From the NCBI GenBank assembly GCA_046314355.1, contig JBKBWQ010000001.1, positions 512,001 through 576,000 of the forward strand: 64,000 nucleotides of DNA. Direction: 5' to 3'. A program made the translations under genes and the position numbers. The notes under the pieces were generated by a model. That model was given only the letters and a program-made list of their open reading frames with translations, had not been told where the DNA came from and made no database searches. The stretch is from Candidatus Altimarinota bacterium. Its GTDB lineage: Bacteria > Patescibacteriota > Gracilibacteria > 1-14-2-50-48-13. This document shows positions 38,730 to 63,060 of this stretch, in pieces. How positions within the stretch are numbered: position 1 is the first letter of the stretch; each line of letters opens with the position of its first letter.

Positions 38730-39182
38730 TTACCTTATTCCTAATTCGTCTTTAATCTCCTGATCAATAGTGTCAGTATGCTTCCCTCCATTCTTATATG
38801 ACCTTTTTTTATGCTTTTTCGATAACTCTAGGTGAGTAATGACAGGACTTTGTAATTCACACTTCACTACCTTCCAATCCCGGTAATCTTCAATGAATTG
38901 AAATCTGTATCTCAATTCAAAAACCTTCTCCTCAGATAATAGATTGAATTTTTTTACATATAAAAACAGCTGTTCCACATAGGTTCTCAACTCCAATGTC
39001 TGCTCATGAGTAAATGGCCATGAAGTAGTGTCAATAACTGCTCTTTCACTTAATTCATTAGCTATATCATGCTTAATTTTATGGATCTTTATACTTACTA
39101 TTGTATCCGAATCTGAAAGAATATTTTTCATACTCAGTTCTTCTTCTACAAATGGCACCTCCTTATTTTCTCCTAAATGCAT
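38730..39182 (-). CDS. Orphan hypothetical protein (start uncertain)
   Basis: ORF after promoter TTGTGC-16-TAGTAT; contains TAAGGAGGTG at 39156-39165. Confidence 0.55.
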   Translation of the reverse strand: MHLGENKEVPFVEEELSMKNILSDSDTIVSIKIHKIKHDIANELSERAVIDTTSWPFTHEQTLELRTYVEQLFLYVKKFNLLSEEKVFELRYRFQFIEDYRDWKVVKCELQSPVITHLELSKKHKKRSYKNGGKHTDTIDQEIKDELGIR

Positions 39183-39213
39183 ATATCTTGAGTTATGATG
39201 CCCATATACTAAC

Positions 39214-39243
39214 AAAAAAACATTGCAGCACAATGTTTTTTTT
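39214..39243. terminator. Terminator of the second vanW gene
   Basis: A7-CATTG-CAGCA-CAATG-T8. Confidence 0.6.
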
Positions 39244-39263
39244 ACATAACAAGTTTTCTAAAG

Positions 39264-40163
39264 TTATACTACTTCTACTCTATAACCTTTCTCTCTTAAA
39301 TCCTCTTCATTTACATCGTAGAGGACAGGTGCAAAATTTTTCACTACAAACTGCGTATCTTTGAGCTTACCTTCTACATATGTATCCTTATAAAGCTCAT
39401 TATATCTAAAAAAATTCTCTCCCCATTTTAAAAACAAATGATTTTCTTCGCGTATTTTATACTTCTCTTTTAAAGGTGACGTAGTCACTAGTTGTCCTTT
39501 TAAGTGACTATCTGTAAGCCAGAGTTTTAGCTGAATAGGCTGATCAGAAGTATTTTTTACAACTAGATCCACATAGTTATAAAATACTGTCGCACCGCTG
39601 CCAAAAGGCAGAACCCGACCTGAATCTGGAAACACATCAAATGAATGATGATATCTTTCTACAATCTCAAAGGGACCATGGAGAAACATCCAGTAAAGAA
39701 GATTGGAAAGCTGGCATAATCCTCCACCTACGCCTTCTACAACATGCCCCCGCGCAAGAAGCATTCCTTTTGCGTACCCTTTCTTCTCAGTGGCTTTTCC
39801 CACAAGATCCCAATAAGAAAATGTCTGTCCAGGCTGTATCACCACACCATCCATAGTACTGCTTGCTACTCTCAAATTTGTAATCTTCTGCCTCTGGAGA
39901 TGCTCATTATTTTCTCCTAATTTTTTCATGAGAAGAGACTGATGTCTTGCTACTACAGATGGCAGGTATTCATTACTCTTTTGATGAGCATGCTGTGAAA
40001 GCAGATTCGTCCAATGACGTTTCGCACGGTAAAACTGAATGGCTGTCGTATAAGCAAGTTTGGATCTATTAGAAAGCTTTCTTGCGAGTGGTGATTCAAA
40101 CATCTTCATGCTTGAGACAAGAAGCGGAGGAAGAGTTGAAGGTATTGTGGAGAGAGTCATCAT
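39264..40163 (-). CDS. VanW family protein (no signal peptide; start uncertain)
   Basis: KITNL, FSYWDLVG, GGGLCQLSNL, ERYHHS, RVLPFGSGATVFYNYVDL. Confidence 0.9.
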   Translation of the reverse strand: MMTLSTIPSTLPPLLVSSMKMFESPLARKLSNRSKLAYTTAIQFYRAKRHWTNLLSQHAHQKSNEYLPSVVARHQSLLMKKLGENNEHLQRQKITNLRVASSTMDGVVIQPGQTFSYWDLVGKATEKKGYAKGMLLARGHVVEGVGGGLCQLSNLLYWMFLHGPFEIVERYHHSFDVFPDSGRVLPFGSGATVFYNYVDLVVKNTSDQPIQLKLWLTDSHLKGQLVTTSPLKEKYKIREENHLFLKWGENFFRYNELYKDTYVEGKLKDTQFVVKNFAPVLYDVNEEDLREKGYRVEVV

Positions 40164-40330
40164 GAGCTTTAAAAAGTTTGTATATAGATATAACGCCGCA
40201 GCGAAAAAAGGTTACATATTTTTTATAGTAAATTTTAAGACTCAACTGTTGACAAATTTATTTTTAATATTTTATAACTAAATATACATTTGTCAATAGC
40301 ATATATACCGTTATAAAATATTGTTGCAAT

Positions 40331-40353
40331 AAAAAAGAGCCCTCAGGGGCTCT
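40331..40353 (-). terminator. Intrinsic terminator of the 40370 orphan
   Basis: AGAGCCC-CTG-AGGGCTCT followed by a T-run on the minus strand. Confidence 0.7.
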
Positions 40354-40369
40354 AATAATTATATGTATT

Positions 40370-40716
40370 TTAGTAAAATTTTTCTCCTTCTTTCTTAGAT
40401 AGATATTTTATAAATAAATCTTTAAAGAAAGTCATTGATGAATATCCCAAAGGATTATCATGTCTCCAGTTAGAGATTTCAGCAGGATAAAATCTCATTG
40501 GATACTGGATCGTATGTTTTAAAAATGAAAAAGCATACTTAATATCCTCTTCATTCCATCCATTAAAAAAGTCTATAACAGTCTTTTGAATTTCAGGATG
40601 ATGATGAGCAATCTGCTCACACAACAAATCAGATATCTTTTCTAGTGTTGTTCTCTCAGGAACAACCTGTAGAATTGTTTTAGAATTTTTTTTGCTGATG
40701 CATGTACTGTACCCAT
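40370..40716 (-). pseudogene. Orphan gene split by a -1 frameshift at an A8 tract (pseudogene, slippage-dependent gene, or assembly error)
   Basis: SD GAGGAG then ATG at 40716; GCA AAA AAA ATT needs one extra A to join the 85-aa ORF, giving 115 aa. Confidence 0.55.
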
Positions 40717-40870
40717 TACGAACTCCTCATTGTGTTTTTATAATAATGCGGATGTTTTATACTGTTTTTTAACTATTAGTCAACTACTTTTTATACAACT
40801 CCCATCTTCATCTTGAGTTTCTCGGCTTTTTAGCTTACATTTCAGAGGATTTATTTTCAATATTCAGTAT

Positions 40871-42667
40871 ATGTCATCTATCATTCAAGTCTCAAAGAAA
40901 TACCGCACTCATACCTGCAATGACTTAGGATTGAATGATAATGATTCAACAGTTACACTCTCTGGATGGGTGCATTCACGGAGAGATCATGGAGGACTTA
41001 TTTTTATTGACCTCAGAGACAGATTCGGACTTACACAGGTTGTATTTGATCCTGCAATAAACAAAGAGATTCACAGCGAAGCAGAGCATATCCGATCTGA
41101 ATGGGTACTTCAGATCACAGGAACTGTACGAAAAAGACCTGAGGGGCAAAGCAATGCAAACCTTGCTACAGGTGAGATAGAAGTACTTATCAACGAGCTC
41201 AAAGTTCTCTCTAAGGCAGAGGCGCTTCCCTTTGAGATCGCTGGAGGAGATGAAGTAAACGAGGAGCTTCGTCTTGAATATCGATATCTCGACCTTCGAA
41301 AGAAAAGACTACAGGAAAATCTTATCTTCAGACACAAAGTAATTCAGTGGTCTCGAGACTTCTTCGACCAGGAGCAGTTTATAGACGTAGAGACTCCTAT
41401 GCTTGTAAAAGGAACTCCTGAAGGATCACGAGAATATATCGTCCCTTCCCGTCTCTATAATGGAGAATTCTATGTACTTCCTCAGTCACCTCAGCAGATG
41501 AAACAGCTTCTGATGGTAGCGGGATACGACAGATACATCCAGTTTGCGAGATGTTTCCGGGATGAAGATCAGCGCGGAGACCGGCAGCCGGAGTTCACTC
41601 AGCTCGACATGGAGATGAGTTTTGCCACTCAGGAGGACGTCATGGATATCTTCGAGAGATGGGCACTTGGACTTTCAAAGAAATTTGCATCACAGAAGAG
41701 ACTTCAAAATGAGCCTTTCCCTGTTATTACATGGAAAGAAGCTATGAATTCCTATGGCTCAGATAAGCCGGATGTAAGATTTGAGATGAAAATTGTAGAT
41801 GTCACAGATATTCTAAAGACAGCTGGTATTAACTTCCTTGATACTGTTATAAATGCAGGAGGAGTCGTAAAAGCACTTCCCGTAAAAAACGGAGCAAGCT
41901 TTACACGTGCTCAGATCGACAAATATGTAGAATTTGCTCAGGCAAACAAAGCCAAGGGACTTGCATATATTATGTGGGATAAAGAGACTGGAGAGATCAA
42001 AGGATCCCTCGCAAAACTTCTCTCTCCAGAGAAAGCAGCAGAGCTTAAAGCCTTTGGAAATCTTGAGAATGGAGATCTTATGTTCTTCGTATCAGATCAA
42101 TGGGAACCAGCAGTGAGCTCACTTGGCGCACTTCGACTCTCTCTTGGAGATTATTTCAATCTTCGGGATAAAGACCTCCTCGCATACCTTTGGGTAGTAG
42201 AGTTCCCACTTCTTGAACAGGGAGATGATGGATCCATAGGGGCTGCACATCATCCGTTTACTCGTCCAATGGATGAGGATATGGGACTTATAGATACAGA
42301 CAAGATGGCGATGCGTGCCTATGCATATGACCTTGTAATGAACGGTGTAGAGCTTGGAGGAGGATCAGTCCGTATTCATGAAGCAAGCCTTCAGAAGAAG
42401 ATATTTGAGCTTCTAGATCTCAACGAGGAAGAGATCCAAAGACAGTTTGGACATATCCTCAAAGCCTTCAGCTTCGGAGTACCGCCGCACGCAGGATGTG
42501 CTATGGGAATCGATCGACTTATCATGCTCCTCAGAGATGAGCCAAATATCAGAGAGGTAATCGCCTTCCCAAAGAACCAGAAGGCACGAGACCTTATGTT
42601 CGGAGCACCTAGTCCGCTTCCAGATAATAAATTGAAGGAGGCGAATATTAAGATTAGAGAAGAATAA
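40871..42667 (+). CDS. aspS: Aspartate--tRNA ligase (likely non-discriminating)
   Basis: YRTHTC, RRDHGGLIFIDLRD, LPQSPQ, FRDED.RGDRQPEFTQLD, AHHPFT, GIDRL. Confidence 0.97.
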   Translation: MSSIIQVSKKYRTHTCNDLGLNDNDSTVTLSGWVHSRRDHGGLIFIDLRDRFGLTQVVFDPAINKEIHSEAEHIRSEWVLQITGTVRKRPEGQSNANLATGEIEVLINELKVLSKAEALPFEIAGGDEVNEELRLEYRYLDLRKKRLQENLIFRHKVIQWSRDFFDQEQFIDVETPMLVKGTPEGSREYIVPSRLYNGEFYVLPQSPQQMKQLLMVAGYDRYIQFARCFRDEDQRGDRQPEFTQLDMEMSFATQEDVMDIFERWALGLSKKFASQKRLQNEPFPVITWKEAMNSYGSDKPDVRFEMKIVDVTDILKTAGINFLDTVINAGGVVKALPVKNGASFTRAQIDKYVEFAQANKAKGLAYIMWDKETGEIKGSLAKLLSPEKAAELKAFGNLENGDLMFFVSDQWEPAVSSLGALRLSLGDYFNLRDKDLLAYLWVVEFPLLEQGDDGSIGAAHHPFTRPMDEDMGLIDTDKMAMRAYAYDLVMNGVELGGGSVRIHEASLQKKIFELLDLNEEEIQRQFGHILKAFSFGVPPHAGCAMGIDRLIMLLRDEPNIREVIAFPKNQKARDLMFGAPSPLPDNKLKEANIKIREE

Positions 42668-42756
42668 AATTACTCGTCATCCTGCGAGCAATAACTCAAC
42701 TTTAGTAACTAAGAACTGCCCCGTAAGACCCACCACGCGTTCGAGCCAGTACGCAA

Positions 42757-42787
42757 AAAGCCGAGACTAAAATTTAGTCTCGGCTTT
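42757..42787. terminator. Bidirectional terminator
   Basis: AAAGCCGAGACTAAA-A-TTTAGTCTCGGCTTT. Confidence 0.8.
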
Positions 42788-42791
42788 ACTA

Positions 42792-43295
42792 TTAACTATA
42801 GTAATCAAACCATCCTACCGGTGCAAGATGAATATCACCCTGTACTTCTAAATCCTGAGGATAATATTCTCCAAGATTTACCACTGCGAGGTCTCCATGG
42901 TATGTAACAACATATCTTTCTTTATCCAGCATCAGAATAAGTGGAAAACGCCGCAGCATTCCACGCATCTGATTTTGCAGCTCTAGAAATACTGATACAT
43001 TCTTTGGATCTTTATTATCATGCGTAAAAACAAGCGGTTCCCTTTTAAAGAGAGGTAATGTATCTGACCAATTGAATAATTCAAAAAAATCATGATCACC
43101 AAGTTCATCATTGATAGAGACAAGTCTTGCCTGTTCTATCAATAAACTTACAGGAATGACCTGAATCTCCTTAGCGTCATTAAACAATTCTGGAAAAATA
43201 ATTTTAAATTTTTCTAACTCTTCTTTAGTTGAAGTAAGAAGAGTATTTCTAAAAAATGAATTCCTTAATTTGGCAACTTTTACTAAATCAAGCAC
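42792..43295 (-). CDS. Orphan hypothetical protein with strong SD
   Basis: AGGAGGT-CATT-GTG start; 167 aa. Confidence 0.7.
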   Translation of the reverse strand: MLDLVKVAKLRNSFFRNTLLTSTKEELEKFKIIFPELFNDAKEIQVIPVSLLIEQARLVSINDELGDHDFFELFNWSDTLPLFKREPLVFTHDNKDPKNVSVFLELQNQMRGMLRRFPLILMLDKERYVVTYHGDLAVVNLGEYYPQDLEVQGDIHLAPVGWFDYYS

Positions 43296-43422
43296 AATGA
43301 CCTCCTGCTTTTAAATACATACATTAGTTTGATTTCAATGATCACTTCCGACAAAGTAATCAAAGGAATCTTTATTACTCTAATCTGAATACAACCAATA
43401 TAAGTGTTTTTCGTCAATGTAC

Positions 43423-43457
43423 AAGAAAAAGAGACGCATAACTGCGTCTCTTTTTTT
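43423..43457. terminator. Intrinsic terminator
   Basis: AAAAAGAGACGCA-TAAC-TGCGTCTCTTTTT. Confidence 0.8.
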
Positions 43458-43543
43458 ATATAACCTTTATAGTCAATATCTTCATGCTACGCTTATCCCT
43501 AATGCTTGAGTCAAACCTAGGATAAGGATGAGGATAGGGTTTT

Positions 43544-43843
43544 TTACATTCGGCATTCTTCAGCCTCTAATCCCTCCTCTTCATCAGACACATCCTTCCA
43601 TTCTCCATGCCATGCTGGCTGCAGAGGGAGAGTTGCTCTCGCCTTAGCAAGCGCCTCCTGCACATCTTCTGTCTCCGTTTCTAGGATATATTCTAAATAT
43701 TTGCGGAGTACTTCTTCAAAGGCCTCTAAGTTTCCTTCTTCATCTGTACAGTTTGAACAATAGATATTTTTAATATCGCCTGCTCCAAAATCAATATGCT
43801 CTTTCATTTCTCGTCCACAACTTTGACAAACTGGGAATTCCAT
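43544..43843 (-). CDS. Zinc-ribbon (Zn_ribbon_2-like) protein
   Basis: CQSCG..M....DFG...YCSNC...LP.QPAW. Confidence 0.75.
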   Translation of the reverse strand: MEFPVCQSCGREMKEHIDFGAGDIKNIYCSNCTDEEGNLEAFEEVLRKYLEYILETETEDVQEALAKARATLPLQPAWHGEWKDVSDEEEGLEAEECRM

Positions 43844-43917
43844 ATGAAGGTAAGGGAAAGTGGAAATATATGGATCTAGTATACAGAGTATTATGTGTGC
43901 TGACTAGAGCAAAGAGA

Positions 43918-43995
43918 GTAATTGGGCTCATATCATTAGGCTTCAATGACTGAGCTCAATTATTGGAGCCTAATGATTGCGCCTTTAATTATCAA
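43918..43995. repeat. Array of degenerate TAATTG(A/G)GCTCAAT units
   Basis: TAATTGGGCTCATA TCATTAGGCTTCAA TGACTGAGCTCAAT TATTGGAGCCTAA TGATTGCGCC. Confidence 0.7.
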
Positions 43996-46635
43996 TTACA
44001 ACATTACTTCTCTCTGCTTTTTTCTTCCTCTATAATACCAGACACCCATTCCTGCAGCTGTGAAAAGGAAGAATGCTATTGGTCCTGACTGAACTTTAAG
44101 TGCGTTGCTGTAGTTTTTACTTTCGCTCTCTCCGCAAAGGGCAGTTACTGCAAAGTAATAGTTCTGAACTTTTGTGTCCATTGTTGGTACTTTATATTCT
44201 GTACCCGTTACCTCTACTGCAGGAAGGTTATAATAACCCGGCTCTGTACCAGCATGTATTCTATATTTTTCTGCTTTATAAGCACTATCCCATATGAGAT
44301 ACTTTTCTTTATCTTTAATGACCATTCTGAGATTGAGCACATCACCTGGGATACATGTAGTAGCAGGTGCAGGTTTCCCTATCATTGGCGTAGCTGAGAT
44401 CTCTTCACTTTGAAGCAGAGGTCTGCCGTCTGCGCCAAGTCCCTGTATCACAATATAGTGTGGCTTACCAGATGCTAGTGCATCTATTACTGCAGTTGTC
44501 TTCCCTTCTACAGTTACAGCTTTGATGTACTGTTTAGGTGTTACACCATAGAGTACTTTAAAGCTTGTAATAGGCGTACTGCTTGCTGCCATTTCCCAAA
44601 CCACATTAATTTTATCAATATCGGCAGTGGCAACAGCATTCTTTATTTGAAGAGTATCAGGAGTTGTAATTGCTTTTACATCTCCCTCTTTGATAGGTGC
44701 ATCATTTGGTCCCATCACAGCAAATTTGAAGTAGTATGTGGTATTTGGAGCAAGATTCACAAAGCTGTGTTCCAGTTCAGTAGGCAGCAATGGAATATAA
44801 TTACTCATTGTAGATGCACTTACTGAATAATATATTCTATAGCTGGTAATGCCTGAGATGCTCTGTGGAGCTGTCCAAGTAGCCTTGACAGTAGAATCTC
44901 CATCCAGCGCAAAGTTCACGCTTGAGACATCAAATTCCGGAGCTGTGATAACTAGTGGTGAAGTGGATGGTACGGTACCAGTAATCCCAAGTTTATTTTT
45001 TACCTGAATTTGTGGATCATATGATGCTGGAGTCTGAGGAAGAGTAATAGTTCCTGTATATCTTCCTGGAGTTGTGATCTCTTCTAAGAGAGTATACTTT
45101 ACATTATCAAGGACATAGAGCGCTTCAGTAAGCTCTGGCTCAGACTCAAGTATTACTTTGATAATCTGTCCTCCTGTATATGTAGCCTGTGCTGGATCAT
45201 ATGTCAGAGATTTCACCCATGCTTCAGAGGTTCTAAGCACGATAGACACGGGAGTTGATACTGCTATGACATTTCCTAGTGTATCATATCCCTTTACACT
45301 TAGTATGTGTGTTCCTTCAGTGAGGCTTGTCAGTGTTGCTTGAAAGTTACCTGAAGCATCTGCTACAGCCTGTCCTATTTGATCATTGTTATCAAAGATT
45401 TTAAGGTTCATAGACGGTCCTGCAGTTCCACTAAGAGGTATTTCCTTTGAGGTAATAATTCCATCCTGAGGTGAGAGAATAGTAATACTAGTAGTACTAT
45501 TGCCTCCCGTAGTACTGTTTTTTACAGTAATAACGTCCTTCAGAGTTGAATCCATTTTGTCTTTCACTTCAATAATCTTTGTACCTTCTGTCAAAAACCG
45601 TACAGCTTTTGCAAATATCTTTCTACCTGCAGGCTGCTCTCCTCCTGTAAATGTATAATCACTTGGAAGAATTGCATTCGTATCATCTGACGTAAATGTA
45701 ATCGTTCCTTTATAGTCAAGTGCCGGCTGTCCATCAATAGTCGTGACATCTATGATCACATCAAAGAGTTCTCCAACTTTTACTTCTCCAGTAGGGATCG
45801 TAGTTATCTTTATCTTAGCAGCAGCAAGGCTTCCGTTACTTGTGGAACCAGAGCTTGTAGTATTCTGGGCAAGCAGGCTTGCTCCAAAGTAACTTGTCCG
45901 TTGAGATCCAGCCTGGCTCTCATTTCCACCCATTGCTTTTGTGCCCTGATAGAGTACAGAGACACGTTTATCAAGAATCTCATTTGTAGTGAGATTTAAA
46001 GCACTTATAGTCGCTATTCCCTCTTCCAGTGAAGATACACGGAATATGACCTGTCCGCGATTACTCGTCATATTTCCTCCCGGCTGCGTAATCACATCAC
46101 CACTTCTGCTTGAAATAAGTTTTACCTGGTGATCTTTAATAGGATTTCCATATTGATCTTTAAGAGTCACCGTGATTTCAACCGTATCATTTCCATTTGC
46201 TTCCACTGCATATTTATTTGCAGCAACATCTGAAAGAGCTGCAGAAGGCTTATCTGCAAATACTTCAAAACTAGAATACGTTACCTGTTTTGAATATTGA
46301 GGTAAGTATGAAGCTATTTTATATATACCTGTAGACTGTAGATGAAAACTATTTATTTCTAATTTGCCATACCCAGCCGCGTCCGCTGTGGTAGGTAATT
46401 TTACTACTGTGCCGTTTGGTTTACTAAGCTCTAGCATAATATCTCCATGAGAATCAACCTGGGATGTTTTGATTACCGTCGTACTTCCAGCAACCGTATC
46501 GTTTGCATATGCTGTTACCGATGTAGCATTGGAGTATGCATAAGCAAATGTGGGAGAAAAAATTCCACCTATGAAAACCAGCAATGTAGCCATTGCCAGA
46601 GCCCTGTTACGGATTGTAGAAAGGAATAAGTTCAT
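43996..46635 (-). CDS. Surface protein with Big/invasin-like Ig and fibronectin type III domains and a C-terminal anchor
   Basis: ANGNDTVEITVTLKDQYGNPI (Big_1); W..P...SYRIYY...L.PNTTYYF (FN3); SGP + TM + RGRKK tail. Confidence 0.85.
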   Translation of the reverse strand: MNLFLSTIRNRALAMATLLVFIGGIFSPTFAYAYSNATSVTAYANDTVAGSTTVIKTSQVDSHGDIMLELSKPNGTVVKLPTTADAAGYGKLEINSFHLQSTGIYKIASYLPQYSKQVTYSSFEVFADKPSAALSDVAANKYAVEANGNDTVEITVTLKDQYGNPIKDHQVKLISSRSGDVITQPGGNMTSNRGQVIFRVSSLEEGIATISALNLTTNEILDKRVSVLYQGTKAMGGNESQAGSQRTSYFGASLLAQNTTSSGSTSNGSLAAAKIKITTIPTGEVKVGELFDVIIDVTTIDGQPALDYKGTITFTSDDTNAILPSDYTFTGGEQPAGRKIFAKAVRFLTEGTKIIEVKDKMDSTLKDVITVKNSTTGGNSTTSITILSPQDGIITSKEIPLSGTAGPSMNLKIFDNNDQIGQAVADASGNFQATLTSLTEGTHILSVKGYDTLGNVIAVSTPVSIVLRTSEAWVKSLTYDPAQATYTGGQIIKVILESEPELTEALYVLDNVKYTLLEEITTPGRYTGTITLPQTPASYDPQIQVKNKLGITGTVPSTSPLVITAPEFDVSSVNFALDGDSTVKATWTAPQSISGITSYRIYYSVSASTMSNYIPLLPTELEHSFVNLAPNTTYYFKFAVMGPNDAPIKEGDVKAITTPDTLQIKNAVATADIDKINVVWEMAASSTPITSFKVLYGVTPKQYIKAVTVEGKTTAVIDALASGKPHYIVIQGLGADGRPLLQSEEISATPMIGKPAPATTCIPGDVLNLRMVIKDKEKYLIWDSAYKAEKYRIHAGTEPGYYNLPAVEVTGTEYKVPTMDTKVQNYYFAVTALCGESESKNYSNALKVQSGPIAFFLFTAAGMGVWYYRGRKKQREVML

Positions 46636-46752
46636 CTTTGTATTTTAGAAATTTCTGTTTTTGTTGTGAAAACTTTCTCCTTATTATACTAGAAAAGACC
46701 TGCGAAAGCAAAAGTCCTCTTCTTGCGTTATTCTATTTTTATTATAACTAGA

Positions 46753-47709
46753 CTAATTTGGACGAGCACAGCTTGCACCTTTTTTACATGTGATCACCTT
46801 ATCTTTTATGCGCAAGTCTATATATGAGTACTCTCCTCCAGTAAGTACATCTGCTTTTAGGTCAGTAAGAAAGCTCTTCAGCATATAAAGCTGAGTATCT
46901 AGATCTTTTTCTACAGCGAAATACACCGTTGTTCCGCTTGCAATCTTCAAATGCATCTCTTTTTCAATCGGAAGAAAACTTAAACCCGCAAGTTTTCCAT
47001 CAAAATTTTTCTGATATGTATCTACTACTTTCTGCAGGAACTGCATTTGATCTTTTGTAAAAATCTTTTTGCCGATCTTTAGTTCGATAAACGGCGTAAG
47101 AATTTCTTTAAATTCATCATATACTTTTGCGTATATCGGTATAGTAATCAAAAGCATTGTAGACTGATCAGTCTGCTTTTGATTTGGATCCGGCTGTACT
47201 ATTACACCGTTTGAATTCAAATAGAATTCTGTCTTTAAGCCTTCATTCTTAATGCGGGCAAATACTGGATAAGAACTTACTTTAAGCTGAAGTGCCTGAG
47301 GAAAGAGACGTCTTATTTCTACAGAAGAGAGCATTGGAAAAGTATCCAGCAAATCTTGTCTAAGCTCATCTGTATTTACAAAAAGAATATTCTGTCCCTT
47401 TATTTTTGCCACATACTGCTCTATCTGCTGAGGATTTACATATGCGGAATCCCGTACCACTGAAATACTAGAGATATGAAAGAAACCTGAGACAAATACT
47501 ATTCCCATCACGATACCCATGAAGGTAATGCTCAGACATGCAAGAAAAAACCTGGGAGTGGTAAATTTGGAAATTTTTTTATTAAAACCTGAAGAAAAAG
47601 CCCTAAAAGTTCTTTGGTTTTTTTTCTTCAACTGCGGACGTAGCCTTCTCGGACGTTCAACATGAAGAAGAGTTGAGAGTTTCTTCTTTTGATTACGGAT
47701 ACTCTTCAT
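46753..47709 (-). CDS. ftsQ: FtsQ/DivIB-type POTRA protein
   Basis: Basic N-terminus, TM, GQNILFV...IRRLFP.AL, YIDLR. Confidence 0.8.
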   Translation of the reverse strand: MKSIRNQKKKLSTLLHVERPRRLRPQLKKKNQRTFRAFSSGFNKKISKFTTPRFFLACLSITFMGIVMGIVFVSGFFHISSISVVRDSAYVNPQQIEQYVAKIKGQNILFVNTDELRQDLLDTFPMLSSVEIRRLFPQALQLKVSSYPVFARIKNEGLKTEFYLNSNGVIVQPDPNQKQTDQSTMLLITIPIYAKVYDEFKEILTPFIELKIGKKIFTKDQMQFLQKVVDTYQKNFDGKLAGLSFLPIEKEMHLKIASGTTVYFAVEKDLDTQLYMLKSFLTDLKADVLTGGEYSYIDLRIKDKVITCKKGASCARPN

Positions 47710-47715
47710 AGAATA

Positions 47716-53389: not shown

Positions 53390-53944
53390 CTAAAAGCTCA
53401 CCTTCACATTCTTTCTCTCCTCTTCACTATCAAGTTCAAAGAAATCTCTCTTTGCAAATCCAAACATACCAGCAAAGATATTTCCAGGGAAAGAGTCTTG
53501 AGCGATATTTAGACTTCTTACTGCTGCGTTATACTCAACTCTTGATGCATTTACATCATTTTCCACAGACTGAAGTGTATTCTGAAGTTGTAGAAAATTC
53601 TCATTAGCCTTGAGATCAGGATAGCTCTCTGCAACTGCAAAAAGTGATTTTAATGCTCCTGAGAGCATATTCTCAGTCTCTGCATGCTCAGCAGGAGTAT
53701 TTGCCTGCATTGCCTGAGACCGTGCCTCTGTTACTTTTTGAAAGACTTCAGATTCATGCTTAGCATATCCTTTTACAGTCTCCACAAGATTTGGAATAAG
53801 ATCATACCTCTTCTTAAGCTGAGTATCGATAGTGCTCCAAGCCTCTTCAGCACGCACTTTAAGCTGCACAAGATTATTATATATCCCTATCATCACCATG
53901 GCGACGACAGCAATTACGATGAGTAGAATGATTACAGCAGTCAT
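53390..53944 (-). CDS. lemA: LemA family protein
   Basis: YNNLV...EAWS.ID.QLK.RYDLIPNLVETVKGYA.HE, YPDLKA.ENF. Confidence 0.95.
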   Translation of the reverse strand: MTAVIILLIVIAVVAMVMIGIYNNLVQLKVRAEEAWSTIDTQLKKRYDLIPNLVETVKGYAKHESEVFQKVTEARSQAMQANTPAEHAETENMLSGALKSLFAVAESYPDLKANENFLQLQNTLQSVENDVNASRVEYNAAVRSLNIAQDSFPGNIFAGMFGFAKRDFFELDSEEERKNVKVSF

Positions 53945-54000
53945 AAAAATATATTAGAAAAACAGATAGTTTTAGGGTACTGCTATTTAGGACTCTTTGC

Positions 54001-54128
54001 AAGAAAAGTAATAGAGTAAGAAAGTAATTTAGTAAGAGAGGAATTGGCATATATTGTTAGAGGTGCAATAATTGAGCTAAATTACTTAATTATTGTGCCC
54101 AATTATTCGAGTCCCAATTACTTGAGCC
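54001..54128. repeat. AGTAAnnn octamer tract plus degenerate TAATTGAGCT-type array
   Basis: AGTAATAG AGTAAGAA AGTAATTT AGTAAGAG; TAATTGAGCTAAAT, TATTGTGCCCAAT, GAGTCCCAAT. Confidence 0.7.
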
Positions 54129-54815
54129 TTAATACTTCTCAATCTTTATAGACTCCATCTTTACATCCTCAAGAGGCTTGTCAGATGCATTTGTCTTTAC
54201 CTTTGTAATCTTATCGATTACCTCTAGACCTTCAAATACCTGACCAAATGCAGTGTAACTTCCATCAAGAAATGGAGCATTCTGTACTACAAAGAACTGG
54301 CTTGAAGCAGAGTTCGGTGCTGCTGTCTTTGCCATAGAAAGCGTTCCTTTAAGATGCTTGATACCTCGAGAGAACTCATCTACTAATACCTCACCATTAA
54401 ATGTCTCACCGCCTATTCCAACACCTTTAGGATCTCCTCCCTGTATCATAAATCCATCAATTACTCTATGGAAGATAAGTCCGTCGTAGAATCCTTTCTT
54501 TGCAAGCTCTCTAAAGTTTTCAACAGTCTTTGGAGTATTACACTCGAAAAGCCGTGCTTTCATTACTCCATAAGTAGTAGTAATTACTGCTATCTCTTCT
54601 CCCTTTTCAGGAAGCGCCATCTGATCTGTATTACAATCTGTAGCTGGATTCATCATTGTAGGTGTGTTAGAAATTAAGTTAGTATTCTTATTCTGAGAGT
54701 AAGAATACGCATCCGTAGTAGAATTTGTATTCATATTTATATCCTCAGGAGCATTTGCTGTACTACATGAAGCAAGAGACAGCATAAGAGCAGAAAGGAC
54801 AATAAACTTTTTCAT
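54129..54815 (-). CDS. Cyclophilin-type peptidyl-prolyl isomerase, lipoprotein
   Basis: Lipobox LASC; FHRVIDGFMIQGGDP, GTLSMA, SQFF. Confidence 0.93.
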   Translation of the reverse strand: MKKFIVLSALMLSLASCSTANAPEDINMNTNSTTDAYSYSQNKNTNLISNTPTMMNPATDCNTDQMALPEKGEEIAVITTTYGVMKARLFECNTPKTVENFRELAKKGFYDGLIFHRVIDGFMIQGGDPKGVGIGGETFNGEVLVDEFSRGIKHLKGTLSMAKTAAPNSASSQFFVVQNAPFLDGSYTAFGQVFEGLEVIDKITKVKTNASDKPLEDVKMESIKIEKY

Positions 54816-54839
54816 AGTGAGGAACAATAAGAGAATAAA

Positions 54840-56198
54840 TTATTTTTCAAGGAGCTCCCCAAGGAGCATCCACTGAATGCCATGTTTGATTTTGACAGGT
54901 ACAATCATACCTGGAATAAGATTTTTCTTTGCAGTAAACTGCACTCTTTTCCAAGATCTTGTAGTCCCTTCAAATCTACCATCTCCTAGTTTCTTTTCAA
55001 TAAGAATTTGTTCAAGTCTTCCTTCATATGTCTTATTTTTTTCTGCTGAAATGCCTTTCAATAGATCATTCAGTCTATGCCATCTTGATGCTTTCTCAGC
55101 TGCAGAAACATCATCCGGCACTCTTCTGGCAGAATATGTTCCCTTTCGAGGAGAGTATCTGGAAGTAAATGACATATCAAAGCCCACTTCTTCAAAAAGT
55201 TTATAGGTATTCATAAATTCCTCCTCTGTCTCTCCGCAGAATCCAACAATGACGTCCGTAGTAATGCATATATCAGGCATGGCTTCTTTCAGTTTTCTGA
55301 CGATTTCCACAAACTGTTCTCTCGTGTATTTTCTATTCATTCTTTTCAGCACCTTGTCATCCCCGCTTTGAGCCGGAAGATGTACATGAGGACACATTGT
55401 CTTCAATTCTACATGTGCGCGGATCAGTTCATCTTTCATATCCATAGGATGCGGAGATGTATATCTCAAACGATCAAGTCCAGGAATCTTATTGAGCTGA
55501 TAGAGTAGCTCTACAAAATTATTCTCAGAATACTCTTTTGTGGAAGATTCATGCTTGTATGAATTTACAGTTTGTCCTAGAAGTGTGACTTCCTTTGCTC
55601 CTCTTGCCACAAGATCCTTTACCTCTTCAATGATCTCCTGCATCGGACGACTAATCTCTCTCTTTCGAGTGAATGGCACAATACAATATGTACAAAATTT
55701 ATCACATCCAGTCTGTACTGGTACGTACACCTGGAATGCAGAAGTATACTCAGGTTTTACCTGAAAGTATGATTCAAGTTCATCTGAATAGTCTTGTCCT
55801 AACTCCTCTTCATAAATCGCTGAGAGAAATTTTGGAACACTTGGAAGATCTTCAATTCGGAAAACAAAATCAAGATCCTCAGATTGCGGAAGTAAATGAT
55901 CCTTACTCACTAATTCCTCAGCAGTATACTTTTTAGCAATACCTGATTCACGCACCATACAGCCAGTCAAACCAATACGAGCTTTAGGATTTTTCTTCTT
56001 CATCTCTGCAAGCTTTCCTACATGTCCCCATACCTTATCTTCAGCTTTCTGCTTCACTGAACATGTGTTCATAATGACAAGATCTGCAGTGACAGGATCT
56101 TCTTCATACTCAAACCCCGCACTTTTCAGCATCGTATTGATACGCTCAGAGTCAGAGACATTCATCTGACATCCAAAGGTCATGACGGCAAATTTCAT
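54840..56198 (-). CDS. miaB: tRNA-i6A37 methylthiotransferase
   Basis: TFGCQMNVSDSE, NTCSV, GCDKFCTYC, TRAM-like C-terminus. Confidence 0.95.
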   Translation of the reverse strand: MKFAVMTFGCQMNVSDSERINTMLKSAGFEYEEDPVTADLVIMNTCSVKQKAEDKVWGHVGKLAEMKKKNPKARIGLTGCMVRESGIAKKYTAEELVSKDHLLPQSEDLDFVFRIEDLPSVPKFLSAIYEEELGQDYSDELESYFQVKPEYTSAFQVYVPVQTGCDKFCTYCIVPFTRKREISRPMQEIIEEVKDLVARGAKEVTLLGQTVNSYKHESSTKEYSENNFVELLYQLNKIPGLDRLRYTSPHPMDMKDELIRAHVELKTMCPHVHLPAQSGDDKVLKRMNRKYTREQFVEIVRKLKEAMPDICITTDVIVGFCGETEEEFMNTYKLFEEVGFDMSFTSRYSPRKGTYSARRVPDDVSAAEKASRWHRLNDLLKGISAEKNKTYEGRLEQILIEKKLGDGRFEGTTRSWKRVQFTAKKNLIPGMIVPVKIKHGIQWMLLGELLEK

Positions 56199-56283
56199 AG
56201 ATTCTTGTAAGTCATAGTGGAAATATATTAGGGAAAGTTTTAAAAATGGCAAGAGAGGGATACAGAGAATAAACTACTGAATA

Positions 56284-56311
56284 TTGACATCTATTTGATT
56301 TTGCGTATTTT
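56284..56311 (+). promoter_or_regulatory. sigma70 promoter of the 56354 orphan
   Basis: TTGACA-16-TATTTT. Confidence 0.55.
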
Positions 56312-56353
56312 TCATCTGGTTATTATTATGAGTTCTAAAAAAGGAGAACCGAG

Positions 56354-56704
56354 ATGAGTAGCCAGGAAAATAAAAAATTTGAAAGTATTATGGTATTAGA
56401 TGATGCAAGTGCATTATCTCCAAGTGAAATCTGGAAAAAGGTAAATGTCGAGCGCAGTGATGACTTATTGGTGTCACTTCTGACAATTATGCCAGATAAT
56501 GAAAGGGATTTGCAAAGAGAACATGCTAATAGAATATATGATAGAAAATATTTAAAAGCTGTCTCTCATGCAGAGTGTCCTTTCTCTGTAAAATCTAATC
56601 AAATTGTTGTCAGATGTACCAAGAAAAAAGACATCGCTGAATTCAGACGTTTGCTTAGTTTGCAGGAGATAAAGCAATTTGAAATAATTGCAATCACGAA
56701 ATAA
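56354..56704 (+). CDS. Orphan hypothetical protein with strong SD
   Basis: AAGGAG-7-ATG; 116 aa; own promoter and terminator. Confidence 0.7.
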   Translation: MSSQENKKFESIMVLDDASALSPSEIWKKVNVERSDDLLVSLLTIMPDNERDLQREHANRIYDRKYLKAVSHAECPFSVKSNQIVVRCTKKKDIAEFRRLLSLQEIKQFEIIAITK

Positions 56705-56712
56705 CACTTTCT

Positions 56713-56739
56713 TAAAAGGAAGCTAAAAGCTTCCTTTTA
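56713..56739. terminator. Intrinsic terminator
   Basis: TAAAAGGAAGCT-AAA-AGCTTCCTTTTA. Confidence 0.8.
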
Positions 56740-56851
56740 TTTTTGCACCACACTTAAAATAAAATCAACACTTGTCAATACTTCATTACACACAGAATTC
56801 CAAAATGTAAAAAAATCTTTATACTAGCTAATGTTTTTAATAACTACGTAT

Positions 56852-57160
56852 ATGTCTCTCACCACCGAACAAATCAAGAAAATCGCGAAACTTGCAAAGC
56901 TTCCTATCAAGAGTGATGAAGAGGCTGAAAAATATGTAAAGGAACTCTCCCCTATCGTAGACTATTTTACTGTACTTCAAGAAGTAGATGTTACAGATGT
57001 TGCCCCTACAGCTCAAGTAACAGGTCTTCAAAATATTACTCATCTTGATACTCCTTCAGATCGTATTGAGACTTTTTCAGAGGATATTTCTGAAAAGACT
57101 ATTAAGGTTAGTCAGCAGTCAAAGACCCTCATGCAGATTAAAGTGCCGAATGTACTTTAG
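56852..57160 (+). CDS. gatC: Asp/Glu-tRNA amidotransferase subunit C
   Basis: IKKIAKLAKL...IVDYF..LQEVDV.DV.PT; IKVPNVL. Confidence 0.9.
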   Translation: MSLTTEQIKKIAKLAKLPIKSDEEAEKYVKELSPIVDYFTVLQEVDVTDVAPTAQVTGLQNITHLDTPSDRIETFSEDISEKTIKVSQQSKTLMQIKVPNVL

Positions 57161-57177
57161 TTTCGTTATCCATAATG

Positions 57178-57259
57178 TGTCATTCCGGGCCTGACCCGGA
57201 ATCTAAAAATATAGATAGCAATCCAAGCTTTAAGATACCGGATCAAGTCCGGCATGACA
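57178..57259. repeat. REP/MITE-like palindromic element
   Basis: TGTCATTCCGGGCCTGACCCGGAATCT...AGATACCGGATCAAGTCCGGCATGACA imperfect inverted repeat. Confidence 0.8.
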
Positions 57260-57289
57260 TACTCCATCGCACTCATTACAACTCACTAT

Positions 57290-58717
57290 ATGCCATCCAG
57301 AATCAAAGCCCTTCACGCCCAACTCACTTCAAAAGCAATTTCAGCAAAGGAATTAGCTACAGAATATTTAAATAGAGCAAAAGAGCAGAATCCCACACTA
57401 AATGCTTTTATTACAATATCTGAAGAGAGAGCTCTTGCTCAAGCAGAAGCCATAGATGTAAAAATTGCAAAAGGAGAAAATATCTCACTTCTTGCTGGTA
57501 TTCCTGGATCCATTAAAGATGTCCTAAATACGGAGGGCGTTCAGTCCACAGGAGCATCTAAAATCCTTGATGGTTACATACCTCCTTTTTCTGCTACAGT
57601 AGTAAAGAAACTTGAGGACCAGGGGCTCGTTATGATCGGGAAAAATAACTGTGATGAATTCGCCATGGGAGGTTCAAATGAGAATTCTGCATATGGAGTC
57701 GTCAAAAATCCAAAGGATATAGAAAGAGTCCCAGGAGGATCATCAGGAGGTTCAGCGGCGGCGGTTGCGGCAGATATGTCTGTATACTCTATTGGTACAG
57801 ACACAGGAGGATCTATCCGCCAGCCAGCAGCATTTACTGGTACTGTAGGTATGAAAGTCACTTACGGACGAGTCTCTCGTTTTGGAGCTATGGCTATGGC
57901 ATCTTCCTTTGATACTATTGGACCAATCACACAGGGTGTCGAAGATGCAGCAATAGTACTTGAAAGTATCGCAGGCAGAGATAGCAATGACTCTACAACT
58001 CTCCAGGCACCAGTAGAAAAGTATACTTCCCTCCTTCAAAATGATATCTCTGGACTCCGCATTGGTCTTCCAAAAGAGTACTTTGCAGAGGGACTTGATC
58101 CTATTATAAAAGAGAAGGTACTTGCAGCAGTAGAACTATTAAAAAAGAAAGGAGCCGTAGTCAAAGAAGTAAGCCTTCCGCTTACTAAATATGCTGTAGC
58201 GCTTTACTATATTGTTGTACCAGCGGAGGTAAGCTCAAATATGTCCCGTTATGACGGTATACGTTTTGGACCAACTATTTCAAATCCAAAAGACCTTGAA
58301 GAGCTCTATCTTGAAAATAGATATAATGGCTTTGGAAAAGAAGTAAAACGAAGAATAATGATGGGAAGCTATGTGCTCTCTCACGGATACTATGATGCAT
58401 ATTACAAGAGAGCTCAACAGGTAAGAACAAAGATTATTGCAGAGTTCAATGACATCTTTAAAGAAGTAGATATTCTAGCTACTCCAGTAACTCCTACCCT
58501 TCCTTACAAATTTGGTGAGCATTCTGATCCGCTCAGCATGTATCTAGAAGACGTGTATACAATTCCAGCTTCTGCGGCAGGAATTCCAGGATTAGTATTA
58601 CCAGTAGGATATGAGGGGCATTTGCCTATTGGAATACAGTTACTTGCGCCTCAACTTCAGGAAGGGAGACTGCTCAATGCAGGATGGTGGATGGAGCAGG
58701 AACTTTCTCTTAAGTAA
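57290..58717 (+). CDS. gatA: Asp/Glu-tRNA amidotransferase subunit A
   Basis: DEFAMGGS.ENS, PGGSSGGSAAAV, GTDTGGSIRQPA, SSNMSRYDG.RFG. Confidence 0.96.
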   Translation: MPSRIKALHAQLTSKAISAKELATEYLNRAKEQNPTLNAFITISEERALAQAEAIDVKIAKGENISLLAGIPGSIKDVLNTEGVQSTGASKILDGYIPPFSATVVKKLEDQGLVMIGKNNCDEFAMGGSNENSAYGVVKNPKDIERVPGGSSGGSAAAVAADMSVYSIGTDTGGSIRQPAAFTGTVGMKVTYGRVSRFGAMAMASSFDTIGPITQGVEDAAIVLESIAGRDSNDSTTLQAPVEKYTSLLQNDISGLRIGLPKEYFAEGLDPIIKEKVLAAVELLKKKGAVVKEVSLPLTKYAVALYYIVVPAEVSSNMSRYDGIRFGPTISNPKDLEELYLENRYNGFGKEVKRRIMMGSYVLSHGYYDAYYKRAQQVRTKIIAEFNDIFKEVDILATPVTPTLPYKFGEHSDPLSMYLEDVYTIPASAAGIPGLVLPVGYEGHLPIGIQLLAPQLQEGRLLNAGWWMEQELSLK

Positions 58718-58722: not shown

Positions 58723-59435
58723 ATGGTATTCAAAATAATATTAGGAATACTTATTATAGGAATTGTAGGTTTAGCAGGATATATCATTTTGATGCAGCAA
58801 TTATCCTCACCTTTAATACTAGATTCTCAAGAAATAGCTCATCCTGCCGATCAAACTACATGGGAAGAATTGCAAACTATAAATAAGAGCAATATTGAAG
58901 CTATGAAAGGCAAGTTGGAAGATCCTCTAAAGAGAGATTTTTTTCAGAGGGATGACATTTGAGATTTGCATGGATTAAGAAAAGAAAATATTTTATCTGC
59001 TTCACCTCCTGATACTCTCTCGTTACTTTTTGATTATTCTTACTATTTAAATGAGAAGAGAGTACCTTCACTGCCATTAGAAAGCAACCGCTTCCACTAC
59101 AAATCGCCTTCACAGTCTGGGACTTGCAAGGGGAAGTAAACAACGGAGGATACCAGCAGTATTTCGATAATTCATCTGGTCAATATAAGCATCTTATTGT
59201 GAATAATCTGAAAACTATTGGCGCATTTCAGACAGCACAGCTAACAGAAGAGGCAATAAAACTATATGAATCTTTTAGCGCTATTGATAGTGATTTATCT
59301 GACTCTGAAAAAATAAGAGATAGTTATTCGGAAGCATCTTATGAGCTTAGTAAAAAATTCTATGCCTCAACTGAGCATTTAGACGAATTAGTAAAAAACT
59401 ATGTAGTGAAGCATATAGATGAAATCGCACTATAA
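58723..59435 (+). pseudogene. Disrupted DUF4375/DMP19-like membrane-anchored protein
   Basis: TM-containing ORF stops at TGA 58960-58962; another frame reads ..LQIAFTVWDLQGEVNNGGYQQYFDNSSG..LKTIGA with no ATG. Confidence 0.6.
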
Positions 59436-60898: not shown

Positions 60899-60940
60899 AA
60901 AAATATTGAGCCAAAAATAGAAACCACCGTCCTTGGGGGT

Positions 60941-61043
60941 TTGGGGGGAGAGAAGCGTCTGATTACTTATAAAAAGCAATATTATTCCGAGACGCTTTTC
61001 TCTCCCCCCAAGACTTTTGGTTACTTTTGGTCACAAAAGTAAC
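60941..61043. repeat. Two-hairpin intergenic element
   Basis: TTGGGGGGAGAGAAGCGTCT..AGACGCTTTTCTCTCCCCCCAA, then GTTACTTTTG-GTCA-CAAAAGTAAC. Confidence 0.7.
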
Positions 61044-61068
61044 AAAGCTTTTGATTCTTTCAAAAGAA

Positions 61069-62250
61069 TTACAACGCCGCTATCCCCGGCAGCGTCCCCT
61101 TCTCTACATACTCTATCATCGCTCCCCCAGCAGTAGAAACATGTGTAAATTCACTAAAATCAATACCTAGTTTCTTCAGTGCATCTACCGTATCACCCCC
61201 GCCAATAAGTGTCTGAGCATCTTTCCTTTTGGCGATAGCCTCAGCTATAAGCTTTGTAGCACCAGCAAATTTCTTTATCTCAAAATACCCAACAGGACCG
61301 TTCCAGATAATAGTCTTTGACTGATTAATTACATTTATAAACTGCTCAACTGTTTCCTTACCAATATCCAGGATCTTCATATTTCCTTCTATGCTATCTA
61401 CTTTCAAGTCAGCACAGAAAGCATTCTCATGTGCTTCATCACATACTATAGCATCTACGGGTATGAGTATTTTCTCTTTCTCTTTTTCAATAGCTAGCAT
61501 AGTCTCTTGTGCAAGTTCTACTTTATCTTTCTCAGATTTTGATAAACCAATATCATAACCACTTGCTTCAAGAAAGGTATTTGCAAGAGCTCCTCCTATA
61601 AGAAAATTATCACATTTCCCAATAAATCTCTTAATAAGTCCTGCCTTTGTATCAATCTTTGCTCCACCTAAGATCAGAGTCATGGGAGTTTTATTCTTAT
61701 CTATCACACTTTTTATTGCCTTTATTTCCTTTGCAAAAAGAAGCCCTATACAGGTTTCATTTACTAATTTTGGTATACCTACAATAGAAGCATGTGCACG
61801 ATGAGAGGCAGAGAAAGCTTCGTTTACATAGACATCAGCAAATTCTGCAAAAAACTTTGCGAAATCAGGATCGTTTTTTTCCTCCCCAGGAAAGAATCTT
61901 AGATTTTCAAAAAGTACAATTTGTCCTTCAGTTTTAGCATTTTCAATAGCAGCTTCTAATAGCTCAGGATCAGTATCTTCTACATACAGTACCTCTTTTT
62001 CCAATGACTTTTCAAGATAGTCCGCAATCGCATCAAGAGCATCCTCCTTCGTTCTCTTTCCTCCAGGTCGACCAAAATGTGTAATAATGACCGGAGTTCC
62101 TCCATGTTCAATAATATAGTTTATGGTTGGCAGACTCAAATCAATACGCGTACTATCAGCTACTTTTCCTTTTGACGTTAAAGACACATTAAAGTCCACA
62201 CGGATCAGTGCAACTTTATCCTTAAAATTAATTTGAGAGAGAGAGTTCAT
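61069..62250 (-). CDS. pgk: Phosphoglycerate kinase
   Basis: RVDFNV, HFGRP, ENLRF, HRAHAS, GGAK, WNGP.G.FE, GGGDT, HVSTAGGA. Confidence 0.97.
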   Translation of the reverse strand: MNSLSQINFKDKVALIRVDFNVSLTSKGKVADSTRIDLSLPTINYIIEHGGTPVIITHFGRPGGKRTKEDALDAIADYLEKSLEKEVLYVEDTDPELLEAAIENAKTEGQIVLFENLRFFPGEEKNDPDFAKFFAEFADVYVNEAFSASHRAHASIVGIPKLVNETCIGLLFAKEIKAIKSVIDKNKTPMTLILGGAKIDTKAGLIKRFIGKCDNFLIGGALANTFLEASGYDIGLSKSEKDKVELAQETMLAIEKEKEKILIPVDAIVCDEAHENAFCADLKVDSIEGNMKILDIGKETVEQFINVINQSKTIIWNGPVGYFEIKKFAGATKLIAEAIAKRKDAQTLIGGGDTVDALKKLGIDFSEFTHVSTAGGAMIEYVEKGTLPGIAAL

Positions 62251-62320
62251 GAAATTTTTGGCAGAAATAAACAGAAAAAGTATAACATAGCGTCTTTATA
62301 TAATCCAAGCATCTTTAAGA

Positions 62321-62352
62321 AAAGCCCTGATCCGCAGTCGCGGACAGGGTTT
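62321..62352 (-). terminator. Terminator of the 62359 orphan
   Basis: AAACCCTGTCCGC-GACT-GCGGATCAGGGCTTT on the minus strand. Confidence 0.7.
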
Positions 62353-62358
62353 AACGGT

Positions 62359-62904
62359 TTATTGTAAATGCTGGTATATAGTAATTGTGTTTTTGTTCTT
62401 TTCAAAAATAAAACCTCCTTCGTCTTTAGGCAAGCTGTGATCTAAAAGTTCCCAGTAGTCTCTGATAACTGTAAGTGCGTATGCAATGATAATAATCATA
62501 GGTGCATAGACAATTGTTATGCTTTCGTTTCTACAGGTACTCAGATACTCATTTAAAGTATCTTTCACAACTCTACCGACTCGTTTGCATTGTAATACAT
62601 CTTTTTTAGAAAACTTCTCTGGAAACTCTGTGAATGTTTTCACTTCTGAAAGCAGTTCAATCATTCTACCACTTCCCACATTATCGTCTTCGATAAGTTT
62701 GGGAGATAGTTTTCTTTTATGAAAATAAAAGAATAATTGATCATCCACTTTCTCCGCAAATGAACTAGGATATAAAATAATTTGGACATCTTCAGGATGA
62801 AGATGTTTACTTTCATGATTTTTCCTATTCCAAAGAGCATCTAAGATCTTTTCAGAATCCTCACTACTTGTCTGTGGGCAAAAAAATACAAGAATCTTCG
62901 ACAT
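62359..62904 (-). CDS. Orphan hypothetical protein with strong SD
   Basis: AAGGAGG-ACAAA-ATG sets the start at 62904 (MSKILVFF); 181 aa. Confidence 0.7.
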   Translation of the reverse strand: MSKILVFFCPQTSSEDSEKILDALWNRKNHESKHLHPEDVQIILYPSSFAEKVDDQLFFYFHKRKLSPKLIEDDNVGSGRMIELLSEVKTFTEFPEKFSKKDVLQCKRVGRVVKDTLNEYLSTCRNESITIVYAPMIIIIAYALTVIRDYWELLDHSLPKDEGGFIFEKNKNTITIYQHLQ

Positions 62905-63060
62905 TTTGTCCTCCTTTCTAACAAAAATTGTGTTTTGGTCAGCCGTGCCCACTCATCTAGTATTTTTGTATGACATTGAAAATTCAAACGCACAGAAATA
63001 TCCTCTGTGATTTTTGTGTAATCCAGCATTGTCAACGAACAAACCTGTAAGGAATTGTAG

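Follow-up and report, generated by a model that had tools for sequence, protein, structure and literature searches.

The window examined here is a stretch of 64,000 nucleotides (nt) from a Candidatus Altimarinota genome, occupying bases 512001-576000 on the main contig (1.62 Mb) of an assembly of 1.69 Mb, 38% guanine plus cytosine (GC) and 28 contigs, with a completeness of 98% and a contamination of 3.4%. The subject is translation initiation and the use of the Shine-Dalgarno sequence (SD). Most genes in this genome have no SD ahead of their start codons, and a minority class, short on recognisable protein families, has a strong one, the strongest of all standing before rpsU, the gene for ribosomal protein bS21. 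Four members of the class lie in the window, three of them orphans. SD strength was taken as the duplex free energy (dG) of CACCUCCUUUC, an 11-mer from the 16S rRNA 3' tail ...GGATCACCTCCTTTCC, against upstream positions -20 to -4; the tail carries the canonical anti-SD, with CCUCC present. Genes were called with a purpose-written caller (open reading frames (ORFs) of at least 60 codons, dicodon log-odds scoring, overlaps resolved greedily); the 1417 genes obtained cover 88% of the DNA. Starts were first picked blind to the SD, from a position weight matrix, the start codon and the coding score, and in a second gene set an SD-supported alternative start was permitted at a threshold of dG <= -8.5. 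The strong SDs of the window and the genes that they lead, with lengths in amino acids (aa), are as follows.

43300-43306, minus strand: SD AGGAGGT, 4 nt before GTG 43295; dG -11.5
42792-43295, minus strand: orphan gene, 167 aa, GC 0.339, without a Pfam, PHROGs or PADLOC family
52348-52353, plus strand: SD GGAGGT before ATG 52360; dG -10.7
52360-53297, plus strand: HAD hydrolase of 226 aa, then a small ORF of 78-86 aa abutting or overlapping the HAD stop
53305-53332: two-way terminator after the HAD unit
56284-56311, plus strand: promoter-like TTGACA-16-TATTTT upstream of ATG 56354
56341-56346, plus strand: SD AAGGAG before ATG 56354; dG -9.3
56354-56739, plus strand: orphan gene, 116 aa, GC 0.333, Leu mostly TTA/TTG, including its own terminator at 56713-56739
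62910-62916, minus strand: SD AAGGAGG before ATG 62904; dG -14.6
62359-62904, minus strand: orphan gene, 181 aa, GC 0.332

For the remaining 47 of the 51 genes in the window dG is >= -6, mostly 0. Among them are the core genes below, in agreement with an earlier annotation made from the letters alone (the sequence-only reading), which had described core genes as lacking an SD.

36491-38505, minus strand: groES-groEL, leaders without SD; dG 0
40871-42667, plus strand: aspS, without SD; dG 0
54840-56198, minus strand: miaB-like radical SAM gene, without SD
56852-58717, plus strand: gatC and gatA, without SD
61069-62250, minus strand: pgk, without SD

Six SDs had been listed in that reading. Four are well spaced at intact ORFs (starts 43295, 52360, 56354 and 62904), and two fail. 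One of these, TAAGGAGGTG at 39156-39165 (minus strand), is not a start-site signal: it lies inside the ORF 38730-39233, where it reads as the codons K-E-V, and the next in-frame ATG, at 39131, is 24 nt away and has a dG of -2.8 in the working range. At ATG 40716 the SD itself is real, but the frame ends after 24 codons. Because the frames change at an A8 run, no intact gene of 115 aa is present there. The features of this locus are these.

40723-40728, minus strand: SD GAGGAG, 6 nt before ATG 40716; dG -8.1
ATG 40716 to TAG 40644-40642, minus strand: 24-codon ORF
40686-40693, minus strand: A8 run, site of the frame change
40370-40624, minus strand: 84-codon ORF in a second frame, which is open from 40699 to 40370
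40353-40336, minus strand: terminator of the 40370 unit

The gene at 40370-40728, in its two frames, could be a case of programmed or transcriptional slippage, of phase variation, or a pseudogene. The A8 run reads A_AAA_AAA in the zero frame, and a -1 slip would unite both parts. A second assembly of the source run is identical over 38600-58500, the split gene included, and as it derives from the same reads it is not an independent witness. No RNA data set was listed as containing the stretch, only the probable source DNA run.

Other properties ascribed to the window genes were upheld in part. The contrast in leucine codons is present, with TTA/TTG at 8 of the 11 Leu codons of the 56354 gene and CTT/CTC at 54 of the 61 of aspS. 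Most of the SD genes had been credited with a promoter and a terminator of their own; terminators are found for the 56354, 40370 and 52360-53297 units, but promoter-like hexamers are no commoner than expected by chance (46 found vs 59 expected). The absence of integrases and transposases was confirmed among the 22 interval proteins scanned.

Two classes of start site across the genome

With SD-blind starts, 57 of the 1417 genes (4.0%) reach dG <= -9, against 0.39% of shuffled leaders, a tenfold excess, and 72% show no SD pairing at all (dG 0). Intermediate strengths are depleted, the middle bins (-7 to -4) holding 1.8% of genes vs 3.9% in shuffles, and the distribution consists of two classes. 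SD-type 4-mers form a sharp peak at -12 to -10. When alternative starts are permitted, 86 genes lie at <= -8.5 (71 of the 1357 genes of the main contig, 15 of the 60 of the small ones), and in 66 of these 86 the SD stands 5-8 nt from the start; the minority class thus has what defines a canonical SD, at least 5 nt of anti-SD complementarity 5-10 nt before the start. Internal in-frame ATGs were considered as a null set and dropped, since coding sequence is purine-rich. The sequence-only reading had tied its idea of two initiation classes to a genome-wide comparison of dG, and because SD frequency differs between core and orphan genes the idea stands; orphan status, codon use and monocistronic layout, the correlates that it named, all associate with a strong SD.

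On the main contig the SD genes differ from the others in GC (0.358 vs 0.387, p 1e-9), coding score (0.33 vs 0.43, p 3e-9) and upstream gap (183 vs 118 nt, p 1e-6), and they are more often monocistronic (52/71 vs 471/1286, p 1.8e-9) and less often inside operons (4/71 vs 370/1286, p 3.5e-6), the same contrasts being obtained from the 53 SD genes with SD-blind starts. Leucine is encoded by TTA or TTG at 40% of its codons in SD genes, against 22% elsewhere. By GC quintile, SD genes number 36/272 in the lowest and 6/272 in the highest. The Pfam scan covered 85 of the 86 SD proteins (the gene of the last crossed from one tile into the next), and a match was found for 20 of 70 on the main contig vs 102 of 140 length-matched genes without SD (p 1.2e-9). 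Matches to PHROGs (11/70 main-contig SD proteins) are mostly generic enzymes, and those to PADLOC (4/69) are all generic. The SD proteins form no paralogous family, with one related pair on the main contig and one on the small contigs; the former is encoded at 1261343-1261915 and 1345425-1346075, and one of its members weakly matches His_Phos_1.

SD genes that do belong to known families are also patchy across genomes. An SD-led RpoA-CTD-like gene was found in one of the 31 genomes searched. A three-gene operon at main contig 1408036-1410913 (L076:2036-4910) encodes an F420-0:gamma-glutamyl ligase-like protein, an archaeal-type S-adenosylmethionine (SAM) synthetase and a P-loop protein, and a strong SD precedes all three genes individually. 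The synthetase turned up in 2 of the 31 genomes, and the operon looks like an import. No SD-bearing orthologue was found for recX, the M3 peptidase gene or the RpoA-CTD-like gene.

The leaders as a whole are G-poor (~10% G) and U-rich, with T at 40-46% over positions -17 to -12 and, in 59% of genes, at -1; the leaders of this genome show no peak of A. In the relatives G002, G017, G019, G005 and G025 the leaders are likewise G-poor and U-rich, and 41-69% of genes have U at -1. Such a leader may serve as the start signal of the whole class, in contrast to Bacteroidia, where the signal is A-rich. SD-like motifs inside genes have observed-to-expected ratios of 0.84 (AGGAGG) and 0.91 (GGAGG). Control G-rich motifs are equally low (GGTGG 0.80, GGGGG 0.65), so avoidance within genes is uninformative as to a free anti-SD.

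The small contigs, C2-C28, total 69 kb; they overlap one another at their ends and, apart from a single match of 69 bp, are dissimilar to the main contig. Phage-like genes on them encode a head maturation protease, an HNH/DUF2201 protein and a dATP/dGTP pyrophosphohydrolase domain; an SD precedes 15 of their 60 genes, and TTA+TTG account for 51% of Leu codons. The small contigs probably represent one or two phage-like elements, if not a binning contaminant.

Relatives, gene order and the rpsU leader

The organism had been viewed against the background of Bacteroidia, which proved wrong. Its GroEL is at most 63% identical to any listed record, the nearest being from Patescibacteria-labelled genomes and then from Clostridia, and since the genome groups with Patescibacteria-labelled genomes it does not belong to the Bacteroidia. 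Pfam matches to T4SS_pilin and DUF5663, which we take to be typical of the Patescibacteria group, occur among the control proteins. Relatives were run through the same pipeline; they are distant and only partly sampled, and they are likewise SD-poor, with genes at <= -9 numbering 5/321 in G002, 1/83 in G017, 3/79 in G019, 2/90 in G005 and 0/80 in G025. The groEL loci of other genomes were also surveyed (33 of the 80 loci L102-L181). An SD of <= -9.2 is present in 11/11 loci labelled Firmicutes or Elusimicrobia and an SD in 2/19 labelled Patescibacteria or candidate phyla; neither of two loci labelled only 'bacterium' has one, and in one further locus no start could be placed. SD-less initiation may be widespread in the candidate phyla radiation.

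The rpsU gene (main contig 435210-435419, L024:17213-17419, minus strand) has an SD of 11 nt, AAAGGAGGTGA, with a dG of -18.7 that ranks first among the 1417 genes. No SD was found before the other ribosomal genes examined (bS6, bS18 and the main ribosomal-protein cluster). Extended SDs of the same kind lead rpsU in the relatives G002 (-19.0), G017 (-17.8) and G015 (-18.3), and in G017 rpsU is the sole gene at <= -9. Over 15 rpsU loci, this genome included and the best of several candidate starts being taken per locus, the SD is <= -17.8 in four, <= -11.7 in eight and absent in seven. This recurrence in relatives suggests that, in some state, the anti-SD is open to use by the organism's own ribosomes. 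Within the sampled 383 kb of G002, the only SD in common with the present genome is that of rpsU. G002 also has, at C3:27107-27418, a 103-aa orphan with the same 12-nt extended SD as its own rpsU (GAAAGGAGGTGA, -18.7); no homologue of this orphan was found in the present genome.

The bS21 protein is divergent, scoring 30.9 bits against a Pfam cut-off of 27, and bS6 is long, at 162 aa. Matches resembling rpsU were obtained in 23 of the 31 genomes searched, with a single match in this one; no phage-borne copy of bS21 was seen, and the rpsU of one class relative has an in-frame TGA. Frequent absence of bS21 has been reported for this group (Tsurumaki 2022, PMC9297842). In view of the 23 genomes matched here, some of the reported absences may reflect detection missed through divergence.

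From aspS to pgk the family relative G002 has its genes in the same order, and the orphans occupy slots between the shared genes, where G002 carries different genes. Within this interval an SD leads 4 of the 13 genes without a G002 match and none of the 13 with one. The orphans starting at 43295, 56354 and 62904 were not found in three family relatives and two class relatives, all of them distant. Among 5.8e9 protein clusters the 56354 and 62904 proteins matched only themselves; the 43295 protein has one full-length distant homologue, at 27% identity, among 1.84e9 representatives, which argues that it is a real protein. The sequence-only reading had allowed that close homologues might turn up in SD-using donors, and none did for the window orphans in these protein searches. 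Structure searches of the ESM Atlas gave nothing usable for the 43295 protein (model pLDDT 0.35) and, for the 62904 protein, a weak resemblance to the histidine-phosphatase fold (Atlas score 0.93, TM 0.62) with few shared features; where the family has the motif RHG, the N-terminus of this protein reads CPQ.

Origin of the SD genes and the use of the anti-SD

The reading that we favour, at a probability of roughly 0.58, combines an SD-independent default, an SD on rpsU, and accessory genes that were imported together with a portable SD. Default initiation is SD-independent across the class. Some 95% of genes would start translation without SD pairing, although the anti-SD is canonical, and the 11-nt SD of rpsU would let the cell tune bS21 synthesis by way of ribosomes whose anti-SD is free, an autoregulation suggested by analogy with Bacteroidia. 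The roughly 60-70 lineage-specific, low-GC, mostly stand-alone SD genes would be recent acquisitions from a mobile or viral pool, and would have brought with them a portable SD-type ribosome-binding site that functions in any host retaining the anti-SD. Imported single-gene cassettes were among the explanations offered by the sequence-only reading, and much is consistent with them: low GC, odd codons, monocistronic layout, few Pfam families, the slots in conserved gene order, and the absence of three of the genes from five relatives. AT-rich ORFans and small horizontally acquired islets are known in bacterial genomes, and the SD genes resemble them as short, AT-rich, lineage-specific, homologue-less genes between conserved ones, with a composition and codon use unlike those of the host genome. 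They differ from such islets in being marked by a translation signal foreign to the host's own genes, and in having no mobility genes nearby. The two classes, their properties and the conservation of the rpsU SD are observations; a foreign origin for the cassettes and the use of their SDs by the organism's own ribosomes are what we infer.

A number of points weigh against import with a portable SD. No integrase, transposase or repeat was found flanking the window cassettes, and no donor was identified. The relatives are distant (AspRS 64% identical), so absence from them tells little about how recently the genes were acquired, and homologue-less ORFans could also be native genes that evolve fast. 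In the quintile of lowest GC an SD leads only 36/272 genes, which means that most atypical genes do without one. Gene and start calls come from a simple caller of our own, about 8 of the 71 main-contig SD genes are expected by chance, and the weak SD of recX, not being conserved, is probably one of chance. If the ribosome were fully blind to the SD, as in Flavobacterium, an imported SD would confer no benefit.

The closest known system is that of the Bacteroidota, in which the anti-SD is concealed by bS21, bS18 and bS6, and rpsU is read by ribosomes free of bS21 (Jha 2020, PMC7797042; McNutt 2023, PMC9976891). The pocket residues named for Bacteroidia are Tyr54 of bS21, Phe50 and Asn56 of bS18, and a C-terminal extension of bS6 with Trp100 (PMC7797042). 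As in Bacteroidia, the present genome keeps a canonical anti-SD while SDs are nearly absent genome-wide (CCUCC present, 72% of genes at dG 0), and an extended SD on rpsU stands far above those of other genes; here it recurs in relatives, at <= -11.7 in 8 of the 15 loci. Unlike Bacteroidia, the organism belongs to a Patescibacteria-like phylum, its leaders are U-rich with U at -1 rather than A-rich, and there are about 70 further SD genes where Flavobacterium johnsoniae has essentially rpsU alone.

These likenesses bear on the possibility that the SD genes are a native regulon, an option that the sequence-only reading had raised as genes read only when the anti-SD is exposed. The anti-SD would be hidden by bS21, bS18 and bS6, and bS21-free ribosomes would read rpsU and the SD cassettes, which would rise together when bS21 is limiting. 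That rpsU has the strongest SD favours such a regulon, because the same arrangement is a hallmark of anti-SD occlusion in Bacteroidia; its recurrence in relatives, the retention of an anti-SD that 95% of genes ignore, the tight spacing of the SDs and the depletion of intermediate strengths in leaders point the same way, as does the preference of bS21-free ribosomes for SD mRNAs noted in work on F. johnsoniae (McNutt 2023, PMC9976891). By the same account, the effect required an extended SD, which only rpsU had in that species (PMC9976891), and the cassette SDs here are shorter, at -9 to -15 vs -18.7. The SD genes have no common family or function, and in the G002 sample rpsU is the only SD gene whose counterpart here is also SD-led. 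On this balance we consider a native regulon unlikely. The SD genes might instead be young or fast-evolving native genes that lack the U-rich start signal of the lineage and gained an SD by selection, as the quickest route to translation. With an anti-SD available, the short, AT-rich character of these genes, their low coding scores, and the lack of homologues and mobility genes would be explained. The set, however, contains clear imports in the archaeal-type SAM synthetase operon, its codon use leans in the same direction as that of the phage-like small contigs, and the 43295 protein has a full-length distant homologue, so that such an origin is rather improbable for the class.

That the class is an artefact, made up of chance purine runs at chance ORFs or of wrong starts, has been largely refuted and is now very improbable. 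About 0.6% of shuffled leaders pass the threshold, two of the six listed sites fail and some SD genes have low coding scores; on the other side are the tenfold excess over shuffles, the sharp peak in position, the tight spacing, the associations (p near 1e-9) with GC, with gene layout and with the scarcity of Pfam matches, and the same outcome with SD-blind starts. The most speculative proposal of the sequence-only reading, that SD-led mRNAs are read by the SD-dependent ribosomes of an attached host, was based on a presumed epibiotic lifestyle and finds no support in the analysis. It is the organism's own rpsU that has this signal in its strongest form, the SD genes have no link to an export signal or to export machinery, and we know of no precedent for the mechanism; its likelihood is close to nil. 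A bolder version of occlusion would have a class-wide Patescibacteria ribosome with a normally hidden anti-SD, evolved independently of Bacteroidota or held by shared ancestry, with bS21 autoregulated through its extended SD and some sixty ORFan cassettes, possibly viral, exploiting a small pool of bS21-free ribosomes as a second translation channel switched by ribosome composition. We regard this as rather improbable.

SD scarcity in this radiation has already been published, one study giving 2-7% SD use for Peribacter riflensis, SR1 and others (PLoS One 2024, PMC10783764). The SD-scarce genomes there are classed as without conserved CCUCC, which is present here, and the portions concerned contain nothing on rpsU or on the genes that keep an SD. 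Our literature search found no extension of anti-SD occlusion, or of the rpsU pattern, to Patescibacteria. In Francisella, bS21 paralogues are described as specialising ribosomes (PMC9578407, PMC13374519), and bS21 encoded by phages has been reported (PMC9723584); in such systems the bS21 content of the ribosome is reported to alter which mRNAs are translated, and here there is one rpsU match. That bacteria which ignore the SD still keep the anti-SD has so far been explained, by bS21 autoregulation, from a single phylum. The same rpsU exception, in an SD-poor lineage distant from Bacteroidota, supplies a second, independent test case. In practical terms, an SD in such genomes flags accessory or foreign DNA; its link to lineage-specific orphans also prompts one to ask whether a universal ribosome-binding site is something that mobile genes purposely bring along.

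Two smaller observations may be recorded. An SD-led orphan of 185 aa (dG -14.4) lies at main contig 1204785-1205342, about 1.4 kb upstream of the sole 16S rRNA gene. Within the window, at 59124-59435 (plus strand), a gene for a DMP19-like protein (PF14300, E 6e-17, profile match from position 17) has a TTG start and no SD, and sits among further low-GC orphans between gatA and rlmH.

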